A stretch of DNA of 39,616 bases from positions 1 through 39,616 of IMG/VR virus record IMGVR_UViG_3300045988_080187, one strand, 5' to 3'. Under the pieces are notes generated by a model. The model was not told the DNA's origin. It ran no database searches and worked only from the letters and a program-made list of their open reading frames with translations. The stretch's first letter is position 1. Every line of letters starts with the position of its first letter. Positions 24,639 to 38,580 of this stretch are shown one piece after another. Origin of the DNA: a virus. The position numbers and the translations under genes were made by a program.

Positions 24639-24680
24639 CTCACCGTTCCGCAAAAAAGAGCAAAGCTCATGCTCTGCTCT
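24639..24680 (-). promoter_or_regulatory. Late-gene control element: an intrinsic terminator hairpin (24657-24680) followed in the transcript by TTTTTTGCGGAACGGTGAG, about 45 nt upstream of the tail-associated lysin start.
   Basis: The motif CTCACCGTTCCGCAAA occurs 3 times in the window (24639, 33266, 38540), each time preceded by a terminator. Confidence 0.55.
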
Positions 24681-25383
24681 ATAATTCGTACCATCTTGGT
24701 TTTACTGTAACTTTTGTGATTCCTGTACCCAATGTGATTGTGTTGTTTCCACTTGTTAAGCCGCCCCATTGGTTTACTTTGATATTGCTGTTTCTGTTAG
24801 CTGTTCCTTCATATGCCTGCTTCGAATCGGTATCTATCTCAATGTAGTCTGTTCCTGCTGTATTTATTACAAATACATTAGTTCCTACTGTCACAGTTCC
24901 TTTTCCATAAACTCTTATTAGTGGTTTGGATGGAAATACAGTCGGATTCAGAATACTTCCGTTTTCAGTTAATACTGTTTCTTGTTCACCAGATTTCAAA
25001 TACCATTGTGGCTTGCAGTCAAATTCAAGTTCAAATGTGCCAATTCCACGTGCAAGTTTTATCTTTCCTTCGATTCCACTTTTCAGTCTTCCTAAGCGAT
25101 ACATATCTTGTTTGAAATCATCTTCAATTCTCACATATCCATCTTGAGATAGAATTGCACTTCTAAACGGAACAAATTTATCTTCAAATTCATGTGCAAT
25201 AAATGCTTGATACGTTATATCAACATTTTTATACCTGCCATTATTGATATGCAAATCACCATTTCTACCTGCTATTTCATAGCTTGTATAGTCTGGCTCT
25301 GGAGAAGCATAGATTCCTGCATCAGAAACAAATACACCATAGTCTTTACAATTGATATTCCCAACAACTAAATTTCCAATCAT
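24679..25383 (-). CDS. Distal tail protein (Dit).
   Basis: Its position immediately after the tape measure gene, its 234-aa size, and the typical Dit N-terminus MIGNLVVGN... Confidence 0.7.
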   Translation of the reverse strand: MIGNLVVGNINCKDYGVFVSDAGIYASPEPDYTSYEIAGRNGDLHINNGRYKNVDITYQAFIAHEFEDKFVPFRSAILSQDGYVRIEDDFKQDMYRLGRLKSGIEGKIKLARGIGTFELEFDCKPQWYLKSGEQETVLTENGSILNPTVFPSKPLIRVYGKGTVTVGTNVFVINTAGTDYIEIDTDSKQAYEGTANRNSNIKVNQWGGLTSGNNTITLGTGITKVTVKPRWYEL

Positions 25384-27656
25384 GCGAATACTTCCTCTTC
25401 TTTCTTTCTGGCTTTTTCGAGCTTAATCATCAATTCTTCTACAAGCTCATCAATATCCATTCCTTCAGAAGCATAGACATTGATTACAATTCCACCACTA
25501 GTCTTGTATTTGCTTGAACCTTCTGACTTATTAGAATCTGTAACGGATTCACCAATTGCTTTCACAGAAGCCTTGACTGACATTGAATCTGCTTCTTTCA
25601 TGACTTCTTTACCCATGTCAGCCATTGAAGAAATTACTTCTGAAGCATTATCATCAATACCTTTTGACATACCATACATGAGCATCTTACCTACCCATGC
25701 AGTCTTCTTTGATGGAGAATGGATTCCAAAGAATCCCTTGATTGACTTCAATACTTTGTTAGTGAACCCACCAATAAGATTGATAATCCAACCTGTCATA
25801 TTGCTGATTCCATTCCAGATTCCTCTAACAAGATTTGAACCCAAATCAGCCCAATTGATATTCTTGAAAGAATTAAATGCTGACTTACCGATATTCCCAA
25901 CTGCTGTCCAGACTAAATTACCAATAGACCTTACTGCTGTTGCAATCAGCTTGATTGCGTTGTGACCTGCTCCAGACCAATCAATGTTTGAAAAGAAATT
26001 CTTAGCATTTTGACCGATTGTCTTAACTGCATTTGGGATTTGTGATGATAGATTTTTAATTCCATCAGTTACCCATTTAATCAAGTTCTTACCTAAATCA
26101 ATCCAATTTAAAGCACTCCAAACAGCTATTACTGCTTCAAAAATCTTCGGAATATTAGCAAGCAAATCTGGAATTGCATTGATAATTCCTTGGCCTAAAG
26201 TAATAAGCATTTGCACACCTGCTACTAGTAACTTAGGCAAGTTGTCGTTAATCAAGCCACAGAATTCAATAATGATTTGTGGTACATAAGCTATCAGCTG
26301 TGGAAGCCCATTTGCAATTCCTTGTACTAGATTCTGCAGAAATTCAATTCCTGCATCGACAATTGTTCCAAAGTTAGCTCTCAATGATTCGGCAAACTGC
26401 AAAATCATAGGTAAGGCTTGTTCCAATAAATTAGGTATACCTTCGATCAATCCTTGAGAAAGACCTACAATCCACTGTGTACCACATTGAATTAACTGAG
26501 CTAATCCATCTCCTGTAAACCACTCAAATACTTTTGTTCCAAGTTCTTGGAAAACAGTTACAACTGATGACAGTGCTTCTGACATTGATGTATATATTCC
26601 ACTCCAATCAACTTGTGTCATTAGAGTTGAAATAATCGTAGGTATAGTTTCAACTATAGATGATAACAATGCAGGTAAAGCACTCACGATTCCACTGACT
26701 AGTGCTGCAGCACTTGTTAAAAGGCTTGGAAGAAGCGTAGATATCATAGTAGGTAATTCTTTATTGATAATAGGGATAACTGCACCAATAGCTTGCACAA
26801 TGCCTTGAAATGCTTTCTCTACAACAGGTAATACATTATTAAATGCAACAGTAGCAGATGATACAAACGTATCTACTGCTTCACCAACATTATCTAAGTA
26901 TCCTTCTACTTCTGTATTTCCAAAAGCAACTAGCAAATTTTCCCATGCCATCTTAGTCATGTTCAATGAGCCTTGAATTGTTGTTTGTGCTTCTTTTGCT
27001 GTAGTACCTGCTATGCCTTGCTTTTCCTGCACTAATTCGATTGCTGTAACAATATCTGAAAATGAATCAATGCTCATATCAGATGCTTTGCCTATAGTCT
27101 TCGCATACTCGTTTGCATCATCAATCAGCCTTTCCATTTCTTCTTTCGTTCCACCATACCCTAGTTTCAAGTTGTCTAGCATTGTATAGTTCTGCTTGGA
27201 AAAACCTTTATATGCATCTGTAATTGATTCTAAATCACCACCAAATGTATTCCAGTTATCAGAAATTGCTCTCATTGCAACTTCTGTTTGTTTAGATGCT
27301 TCTTCTGAATTTCCTTTTAAAGAGCTTATCAACGATGCAGAAAACTGAGTTGCTGTTTCCATATACTTATTTGCAGACATTCCAGATGTCTTATAAGCAT
27401 TGACTGCATTCTTCATTACTGAATCATATGCATCACTATATAGCTTTTTAATTCCACCAGCATTTTGCTGAAAGCCAGAAAAAGAATCAACTGTTTTTTT
27501 TGTTAATAAGCCAATAGCTGTTGCTCCTGCACCAACTGCAACACTAATTCCTTTTGCTACTGACTTAGCTGTATTTGAAACCTTTTCTAATCCTTTATCA
27601 AAGTCAGAAGAATCCATGCTTAATTTGGCGAACATTTCAAATACGTCTACTGACAT
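25380..27656 (-). CDS. Tape measure protein.
   Basis: 758 aa, alpha-helical and Gly/Ala-rich with hydrophobic repeats (IGLLTKK, AIPDLLANIPK...), between the chaperones/lysis cassette and the distal tail protein. Confidence 0.9.
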   Translation of the reverse strand: MSVDVFEMFAKLSMDSSDFDKGLEKVSNTAKSVAKGISVAVGAGATAIGLLTKKTVDSFSGFQQNAGGIKKLYSDAYDSVMKNAVNAYKTSGMSANKYMETATQFSASLISSLKGNSEEASKQTEVAMRAISDNWNTFGGDLESITDAYKGFSKQNYTMLDNLKLGYGGTKEEMERLIDDANEYAKTIGKASDMSIDSFSDIVTAIELVQEKQGIAGTTAKEAQTTIQGSLNMTKMAWENLLVAFGNTEVEGYLDNVGEAVDTFVSSATVAFNNVLPVVEKAFQGIVQAIGAVIPIINKELPTMISTLLPSLLTSAAALVSGIVSALPALLSSIVETIPTIISTLMTQVDWSGIYTSMSEALSSVVTVFQELGTKVFEWFTGDGLAQLIQCGTQWIVGLSQGLIEGIPNLLEQALPMILQFAESLRANFGTIVDAGIEFLQNLVQGIANGLPQLIAYVPQIIIEFCGLINDNLPKLLVAGVQMLITLGQGIINAIPDLLANIPKIFEAVIAVWSALNWIDLGKNLIKWVTDGIKNLSSQIPNAVKTIGQNAKNFFSNIDWSGAGHNAIKLIATAVRSIGNLVWTAVGNIGKSAFNSFKNINWADLGSNLVRGIWNGISNMTGWIINLIGGFTNKVLKSIKGFFGIHSPSKKTAWVGKMLMYGMSKGIDDNASEVISSMADMGKEVMKEADSMSVKASVKAIGESVTDSNKSEGSSKYKTSGGIVINVYASEGMDIDELVEELMIKLEKARKKEEEVFA

Positions 27657-27670
27657 GTTTTTCTTCTCCC

Positions 27671-38148: not shown

Positions 38149-38485
38149 CTAACCCTGCGTCCTTGAAATATGATTCAGTATCTTCTTGATCTAATGATTC
38201 TTCTGGATTATCTCTCTGACCCAATTTCTGTTTTCCAAGCCAAATAAGCATTGGTACATTTCCTTTTAACGCAACTTCTTTCTGCTTTCTCCTAATACTC
38301 ATTTTTCCAAAAGAGCTGAACTTTTTATATATTTCGGAAAAATCCATGTTATAAGTTCGTTTGCACCATTTATTAAGTGTTTTGTCTGTCACTTCTAATA
38401 TCAAACATATTTCCTCTTGCGTACACCAAATAGAGCAAAGAGCTTCAAATTGTTTTTTATCTAATTCTTTTAAAGGTCTAGCCAT
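38138..38485 (-). CDS. terS: Terminase small subunit, about 115 aa; the start was moved to MARPLKEL, preceded by AAGGTGGTGATAAC (track ORF 38138..38584).
   Basis: An HTH-like N-terminus. The track's upstream extension would encode the conserved late motif and a terminator instead of protein. Confidence 0.65.
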   Translation of the reverse strand: MARPLKELDKKQFEALCSIWCTQEEICLILEVTDKTLNKWCKRTYNMDFSEIYKKFSSFGKMSIRRKQKEVALKGNVPMLIWLGKQKLGQRDNPEESLDQEDTESYFKDAGLDDF

Positions 38486-38539
38486 GTTATCACCACCTTT
38501 TGCATGCTCCTTTTCGATACCATTTTGGTTTAAAAGATG

Positions 38540-38580
38540 CTCACCGTTCCGCAAAAAAAGCAATCTATTTTCAAGATTGC
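38540..38580 (-). promoter_or_regulatory. Late-gene control element upstream of terS: a terminator hairpin (GCAATCT-N7-AGATTGC) followed in the transcript by TTTTTTTGCGGAACGGTGAG. It is a candidate binding site for the ArpU/RinA-like activator.
   Basis: Third copy of the motif. RinA-family activators act upstream of terS. Confidence 0.55.

Follow-up and report, generated by a model that had tools for sequence, protein, structure and literature searches.

A three-copy sequence box behind terminator-like hairpins as a putative activator-dependent late promoter element of a temperate siphovirus

We analyzed the late gene region of a 39,616-nt stretch of viral DNA (IMG/VR record IMGVR_UViG_3300045988_080187, positions 1 to 39,616; here referred to as the window), with a focus on a 16-nt sequence, here named the box, which lies in front of three late genes. 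The ends of the window (1-119 and 39498-39616) were 100% identical over 119 nt (assembly overlap), and the window is therefore a complete circular phage genome of 39,497 bp. It belongs to a temperate siphovirus of the gut and carried an integrase, a cI-like repressor and replication genes. The late genes are encoded on the minus strand and can be grouped into three units: unit 1 with terS, terL, portal, MuF-like and gp10-like genes, unit 2 with scaffold, capsid, connectors, tail tube, tape measure and Dit, and unit 3 with the tail-associated lysin (Tal), the tail fibre and a LuxR-like gene. Directly upstream of unit 1 a short RinA-like protein is encoded. The features around the three boxes are as follows (RBS, ribosome-binding site).

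38574-38888, minus strand: short RinA-like regulator of 105 aa, TTG start at 38888, RBS GGAGA; candidate box-binding activator
38558-38582, minus strand: terminator-like hairpin closing the regulator gene, its T-run abutting box 1; -10.3 kcal/mol
38540-38555, minus strand: box copy 1, in front of terS; exact match, conserved in about 12 related contigs
38522-38527, minus strand: -10-like hexamer CAAAAT of putative promoter 1; predicted +1 is the G at 38515
38138-38485, minus strand: terS, 115 aa from the corrected start, opening late unit 1 (phrog_606/309)
33291-33311, minus strand: terminator-like hairpin at the end of late unit 1, with TTTTTTTATGT between it and box 2; -10.5 kcal/mol
33266-33281, minus strand: box copy 2, in front of the scaffold gene; exact match
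33248-33253, minus strand: -10-like hexamer AAAAAT of putative promoter 2; predicted +1 is the G at 33241
32614-33195, minus strand: scaffold protein (Pfam/PHROGs)
24657-24680, minus strand: terminator-like hairpin ending late unit 2 (after Dit), its T-run abutting box 3; -16.7 kcal/mol, z -4.9
24639-24654, minus strand: box copy 3, in front of the Tal gene; exact match
24621-24626, minus strand: -10-like hexamer GAAAAT of putative promoter 3; predicted +1 is the G at 24614
21517-24600, minus strand: Tal (Pfam/PHROGs)

On the plus strand the 16-mer CTCACCGTTCCGCAAA occurred exactly three times in the whole window (24639-24654, 33266-33281 and 38540-38555), reading TTTGCGGAACGGTGAG on the coding minus strand in all copies. 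By chance 0.14 copies would be expected, none of 100 shuffles reached three, and no further match was found in the window at up to three mismatches. The observation of the box is thus real and highly non-random, and the three copies of the original prediction, which had been made from the sequence alone, were confirmed at 24639, 33266 and 38540. All copies are intergenic and have the orientation of the minus-strand late genes. The genes which they precede had been named correctly as Tal, scaffold and terS according to Pfam and PHROGs. The distance from the 3' end of the box to the start codon amounted to 38 nt for Tal (ATG 24600), 70 nt for the scaffold gene (ATG 33195) and 54 nt for terS (ATG 38485), which is close to the 45-75 nt given before. 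An independent repeat search returned a three-copy family of 34 nt (24621-24654, 33248-33281 and 38522-38555), which starts with an AAAAT downstream of the box and extends to the 5' end of the box. No direct repeats, whether in tandem or close by, were found around any of the three boxes.

Each box is preceded by a hairpin with a T-run, as had been predicted. That the run leads straight into the motif was found for two of the three copies only, since five nucleotides (TATGT) intervene at the scaffold copy. At the first site the hairpin (38582-38558) and its T-run overlap the stop codon of the regulator gene, and the terS start given in the open reading frame (ORF) track, 38584, falls within this hairpin. 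The long terS frame was lost, broken or frame-shifted in relatives (L049, L043 and L005-type), and the ATG GCT AGA CCT at 38485 was kept. The earlier suggestion that the track start lies too far upstream was therefore right. The terS leader (38477-38509, minus strand) carried a well-placed RBS (AAAGGAG) and an out-of-frame mini-ORF of 11 codons (ATG CAA ...), which in most relatives is an ATG TAA start-stop pair. Another terminator-like hairpin (27682-27704, minus strand, -11.7 kcal/mol) was located inside unit 2 at the junction of the tail chaperone genes and the tape-measure gene. No box follows its T-run; the tape-measure RBS comes directly after it and leaves no room for a promoter. This hairpin may represent an attenuator setting the ratios of tail proteins.

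Downstream of the boxes a second conserved element was present. The sequence AAAAT was found exactly 13 nt past the last G of each box (38526-38522, 33252-33248 and 24625-24621), and the corresponding hexamers CAAAAT, AAAAAT and GAAAAT each share four of six positions with TATAAT (A2, A4, A5 and T6). In 3/3 copies a G is positioned exactly 7 nt beyond the T of the hexamer. An identical in-register run as long as AAAAT was obtained in 28 of 200,000 shuffles of the downstream sequences, and the pattern GTGAG-N13-AN[AT]AT occurred on both strands of the whole genome only at these three sites. When the hexamer is set at -12 to -7, the box is placed at -37 to -25 and its TTT at -40 to -38. The resulting layout consists of the hairpin with T-run, TTT-GCGGAACGGTGAG, a spacer of 12 nt, the weak sigma-A-type -10 hexamer nAnAAT, the G at the predicted +1, the RBS and the start codon. 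The position of a -35 hexamer is occupied by GGAACG, which agrees with TTGACA in 2/6 positions, and a scan for consensus sigma-A promoters (-35 TTGACA, -10 TATAAT, 16-18 bp) listed none of the three sites. The statement that the element is not a sigma-70 promoter with -35 and -10 thus held for the -35 element but not for the -10 region, where a -10-like hexamer of the sigma-A type does exist.

A site overlapping the -35 region is the typical position of a repressor operator, and the box might accordingly serve a repressor which silences the late promoters in the lysogen or in early infection. Without the box, however, these promoters would consist of a -35 with 2/6 and a -10 with only 4/6 matches, leaving little to repress. 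Moreover, read-through would already be blocked by the upstream terminators, and the sole nearby candidate protein comes from a family of activators. We regard an operator as very unlikely.

The original prediction had offered an antitermination site as the second reading of the motif. The box would then act at the level of RNA on read-through transcripts, for instance as a Q/N-like loading site, a processing site or a leader motif. This reading was not supported. The box is located 3' of each terminator and would be transcribed after the decision on termination, with the next terminator 5-8 kb downstream. Neither a complementary (reverse-complement) partner nor a conserved pairing was evident for the box, and the Rfam scan of the window returned no family. 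The place of the box at the -35 position and its fixed spacing to a -10-like hexamer and a +1 G are rather the signature of a DNA promoter. Furthermore, a polymerase made terminator-resistant at the first box would leave the internal copies redundant. An RNA-level element is therefore highly improbable. A boxA-like string in the Tal hairpin was rejected as a single-copy resemblance.

The exact box was also present in three IMG/VR phage contigs and about eight metagenome contigs, which form one clade with the window and carry the box at the same three gene junctions. The remaining exact matches were chance matches without this context, most of them in contigs of higher G+C. The search of the genome and of related phages, which had been proposed as a check, thus gave three copies in the window, their retention at the same junctions in the clade and chance matches elsewhere. 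Within the clade the box was invariant and the hairpins ahead of it varied, with at least four types before the terS-type box and two before the scaffold-type box. The distance from the regulator stop to the first box was 21, about 531 or 591 nt, extra genes being inserted there. In L059 the box was found together with AGAAT at the same spacing ahead of a different gene. Because the surroundings vary while the box stays, the junction of terminator and box can be regarded as a module boundary, and the box travels with the late genes and not with the regulator gene.

More distant relatives carried related arrangements. In L016 (regulator 75% identical) the first box was located 835 nt past the regulator stop, before ParB-like, radical-SAM and terS genes. 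Both sites of this contig, at the first late gene and at the scaffold gene, follow a terminator and read GCGGAATGGTGAG, so that the same C-to-T change occurred twice. In L078/L077 (regulator 36%) the order was terminator, TTTTTTGT, GCTTATTAGTGAG, 13 nt, AAAAT and a ParB-like gene, and in L029 (regulator 39%) terminator, TTTTT, GCACTCATTAGCC, 13 nt, AAAAT and again a ParB-like gene. In both lineages the site is located in front of the first late gene. In a gap-free alignment of eight promoter types only a few columns were invariant, namely T-TGC at the 5' border of the box, a single G in the 3' half and A-AAT; 7/8 types had a G where the +1 is predicted.

The relatives also bear on the question whether the box is a repeat without regulatory role, such as a recombination scar or a module-junction sequence spread by mosaic exchange. 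The module breakpoints of the relatives lie indeed exactly at the terminator/box boundary. But apart from the 16-nt box, the AAAAT and the +1 G the copies have nothing in common; their hairpins and spacers are unrelated, and the promoter region is not a duplicated segment. The uniform orientation and the location always upstream of genes speak against a scar as well, and the concerted change in L016 and the analogous boxes of L029 and L078 point to selection on the sequence. A scar is thus an extremely improbable explanation. Of the two readings first proposed, that of an activator-dependent late promoter is the one favoured by the AnAAT at a fixed 13 nt, the +1 G, the position, the orientation, the conservation and the concerted C-to-T change. 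Based on these sequence and comparative data we consider the interpretation of the three boxes as promoters well supported and likely.

The contigs of P0006, P0008 and P0010 break off at the regulator gene or shortly behind it and were uninformative, as they do not reach the late genes; L028 ends before the late promoter. A search of viral contigs for the L029 box gave only chance matches in coding DNA, and with P0007 and P0004 nothing was found in viral contigs. Nothing was returned by a near-identity DNA search of the late region against deposited phages, and genome contigs, searched by regulator alignment and box pattern, yielded chance coding matches, mostly in DNA of higher G+C. A hint at clostridial phages, among them phiCD146 and phiCD38-2, came from the similarity of TerL. 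The phage with the closest deposited TerL (57% identical), an uncultured human-faecal phage, has 52% G+C, no regulator homologue and no comparable layout and was dropped.

Two further observations concern the same gene junctions. In L032-L038, whose capsid protein is 62-69% identical, an intrinsic terminator was found directly upstream of the scaffold gene (about 9140-9225 in each), followed by TTTATAT(T)G and other sequences unlike those of the window. Termination and restart before scaffold/capsid genes may thus be widespread in this phage group. In L016 (7330-7400) and L028 (2420-2465) an inserted module of small genes separates the regulator gene from the late box. This module has a strong promoter of the sigma-A type with a perfectly palindromic spacer (TTTACA-TGGTGTACACCA-...TATAAT; TTGACAT-AGTATATATACT-...TATAAT), probably an operator.

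As a candidate for the binding protein an ArpU/RinA-like protein encoded just upstream of terS had been suggested. The start and the length of 105 aa of this regulator were fixed by alignment with homologues. Its gene is located at the end of the early/replication module and is followed by terS, terL and portal, a synteny shared with L016, L077 and L078; some relatives carry inserts of 0.5-0.8 kb between the regulator and the packaging genes. With the window regulator no Pfam match and no match to the ArpU family was found, and the match to phrog_36 (PHROGs) was weak. Against the RinA model TIGR01636 it scored 24.1 bits, below the cut-off of 31.9, and aligned with its C-terminal 68 residues only. 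The homologue P0007 reached 38.4 bits and was above this cut-off. An exhaustive hidden Markov model search identified 166 relatives, mostly of about 100 aa, among which the longer ones (134-143 aa) are bona fide RinA proteins. Since P0007 passes the cut-off and the longer matches are RinA, we tentatively assign the regulator to a short branch of RinA proteins. When deposited phages were searched by tblastn with the regulator, nothing was returned.

The AlphaFold2 model of the regulator had a predicted local distance difference test score (pLDDT) of 90.7. Its best structural match was region 4 of sigmaE bound to the -35 DNA GGAACTT (PDB 2h27), followed by AlgU, WhiG, sigmaH and sigmaA region 4. 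The matches obtained with Foldseek were weak. That the model resembles Q21 is taken only as a lead. The protein cannot be a sigma factor alone, because it is too small to hold sigma region 2, and the scan of further ORFs detected no other sigma-like gene except one with a helix-turn-helix (HTH) of the LuxR/GerE type. Of the proposed ArpU/RinA assignment the RinA part could thus be tentatively retained, with a predicted sigma-region-4-like fold in addition, and the ArpU part was not recovered. From these comparisons it appears plausible, and moderately likely, that the 105-aa RinA-like protein is the activator of the boxes.

Regulator homologues of about 30% identity were furthermore found in L024 (7163-11349) and in L025-L027, in islands of about 6-7 kb with an integrase that adjoin rpsI/rplM. 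Structural genes were not present nearby and the box layout was not seen there. These islands look like phage satellites carrying a homologue of the late regulator.

The LuxR/GerE-type gene is the last one of late unit 3 and is accompanied by a fourth terminator.

18936-19208, minus strand: stand-alone HTH protein of the LuxR/GerE type, 87-91 aa, last gene of late unit 3 (PF00196)
18887-18948, minus strand: fourth terminator (18948-18927 and T-run), followed by a scaffold-promoter paralogue that lacks the box (GCACTTTTTTTGT / ATTTTCAAGCAAT / AAAAAAT)

The protein matched PF00196 with 28.6 bits at a cut-off of 23.5 and showed weak matches to sigma/regulator phrogs. At the fourth site, 3' of its gene, the spacer of the scaffold promoter, ATTTTCAAGCAA, was kept, with GCACTTTTTTTGT at the position of the box; the genes downstream had no assigned function. 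The site may be what is left of a decayed promoter, a promoter under the control of a different factor, or a second regulatory tier.

GerE-type proteins are late-stage activators. The boxes could hence be late promoters which are read by this LuxR/GerE-type protein (18936-19208), whose HTH passes the Pfam threshold, or by a host factor. The box-bearing contigs all belong to one phage clade, and co-occurrence does not discriminate between the LuxR-like and the RinA-like protein. However, the LuxR-like gene is itself located downstream of box 3, within the late region, so that its product could not start late transcription without another promoter. The RinA-like gene is the last of the early genes, which is the canonical place of an ltr gene, and L016, L029 and L078, which were found via homologues of the RinA-like protein, have the same layout adjoining that gene. 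A LuxR/GerE-type or host reader is accordingly unlikely. A GerE-type consensus within the box was rejected, the resemblance being partial.

Outside the late promoters a few features of the genome should be mentioned. A repeat of 137 nt (79% identity; 11120-11256 and 13278-13414) comprises the upstream regions of two minus-strand early genes, one copy being in the divergent region adjoining the cI-like repressor gene, and looks like a duplicated early promoter/operator. The minus-strand string GAAAGAAGGACAAGGACATGA was found at the starts of at least six early genes (7696-7721, 9500-9525, 10124-10152, 11122-11147, 12598-12626 and 13280-13305) and is a conserved translation-initiation string. 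In the genes that follow the tail module (16607-18865, minus strand), searches with Pfam, PHROGs and PDB sequences brought up neither an endolysin nor a holin; a 245-aa protein encoded there has an N-terminal hydrophobic segment and a coiled-coil-like region.

The arrangement found here resembles that of the RinA/Ltr late activators, which have been described for the Gram-positive temperate siphoviruses phi11, 80alpha, phi55 and phiFL2A (PMC3152322, PMC3753634) and as Ltr for phi13 (PMC13123087). In these phages the regulator is the last early gene and the terS promoter is activator-dependent with a sigma-A -10 (PMC3152322, PMC3753634, PMC13123087), and an intrinsic terminator separates the regulator from terS (PMC3152322, PMC3753634). 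The RinA sequences lie more than 155 bp upstream of the +1 (PMC3152322). With the RinA/Ltr systems the window shares the regulator as last early gene, the terminator before the terS promoter, a sigma-A-type -10 and a predicted sigma-region-4-like C-terminal HTH. In contrast to them, the regulator has only 105 aa, about 30 residues fewer, and stays under the RinA cut-off. Furthermore, three promoters and three terminator-bounded units are predicted instead of one promoter for a single morphogenesis-lysis operon, and where other genes have been inserted behind the regulator the box remains next to the late genes.

A single box repeated before several late units, with a usable -10 and a poor -35, is also a feature of phage Mu C (four late promoters, site at -30 to -55), P2 Ogr / P4 Delta (four promoters, dyad at -55) and P1 Lpa (box at -22). 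These are Gram-negative phages with unrelated proteins and other box positions or symmetry, and an abutting terminator has not been described for them. In the lambda cII promoters (PRE, PI and PaQ) TTGC-N6-TTGC flanks the -35, and the MotA-box of T4 belongs to middle promoters. As at these promoters, the predicted activator site replaces or straddles the -35 in front of a sigma-70-type -10, although the proteins are not homologous. The box may be read as TTGC-N6-GTGA at about -39 to -26, nearly in the register of cII, a reading which is only weakly supported. Finally, promoters of extracytoplasmic function (ECF) sigma factors have -35 GGAAC and -10 CGT, and GGAAC is located at -35 to -31 in the boxes of the window. 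The -10, however, is A-rich and not CGT, and the regulator aligns only with region 4 and has no region 2. GGAAC was not kept in relatives, being GGAAT in L016 and absent in L078 and L029.

Taken together, we consider it probable from the sequence comparisons that each of the three boxes forms the upstream half of a late promoter and is recognised by an activator which the phage itself encodes. Some observations weigh against this view. The Ltr sites described so far are built from 2-4 direct repeats (7 nt; 18 bp in phi13) adjoining the ltr gene, whereas a single box of 13-16 nt at the -35 position is present here. The scaffold promoter of L077 carries AGAATGTGGTGAG and not GCTTATTAGTGAG, only the 3' half of the box being common, and in L080 (33% regulator) the box layout was not recognisable. 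The contigs with the exact box are nearly all close relatives, so that its invariance in itself is weak evidence. The covariation of box and regulator covers four regulator lineages; the window protein and P0002 have the same recognition helix, and the C/T difference may be a tolerated variation rather than a sign of co-evolution. In addition, the second small HTH protein of the late region, that of the LuxR/GerE type, is an alternative candidate for the binder.

In the proposed mechanism host RNA polymerase with the primary sigma factor alone would not use the three promoters, because they have no -35 element. The RinA-like protein, with its predicted sigma-region-4-like HTH and a gene that closes the early region directly ahead of the first box, would bind the box and recruit or stabilise the polymerase. 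The terminator before each box would shield the promoter from read-through, and since read-through would be blocked, each unit would depend on the activator. By terminating transcription the hairpins would split the late cluster into three separately initiated units. Such a split would allow different expression levels per unit and make each block a self-contained cassette that can be exchanged between phages.

In a stronger form, the terminator would be an obligatory part of the promoter and make up a composite element with the box, and this element would be recognised by a free-standing mimic of sigma region 4. As in a Gram-positive counterpart of sigma appropriation, the 105-aa protein would sit at the -35 and substitute for sigma-A region 4. 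The T-tract would serve as an upstream promoter element, or the polymerase, once released at the terminator, would start again directly at the box. The late genes would then be expressed in a relay of cassettes, each with termination and restart, with the LuxR/GerE-like protein controlling the last, box-less unit. We regard this extended model as unlikely.

To our knowledge, late control in temperate phages that infect Gram-positive gut bacteria is known almost only from staphylococcal, enterococcal and lactococcal models. In those models a single Ltr-dependent promoter serves one long operon. Three activator-dependent promoters as proposed here would not alter how late regulation in phages is generally seen. 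The control logic is familiar, and the proposed layout, with a single -35 box and three terminator-bounded units, is undescribed. If the promoter reading is true, a short branch of RinA would use a compact site at the -35 position and control a small regulon of terminator-insulated cassettes. The reading would also provide a testable promoter grammar (13-nt box, 13 nt, AnAAT) for annotating the late promoters of uncultured gut phages. The pairs of activator and box (GCGGAACGGTGAG, GCTTATTAGTGAG and GCACTCATTAGCC) would be orthogonal and possible genetic switches, and the arrangement would help to explain why mosaic breakpoints are found at terminator/promoter junctions.

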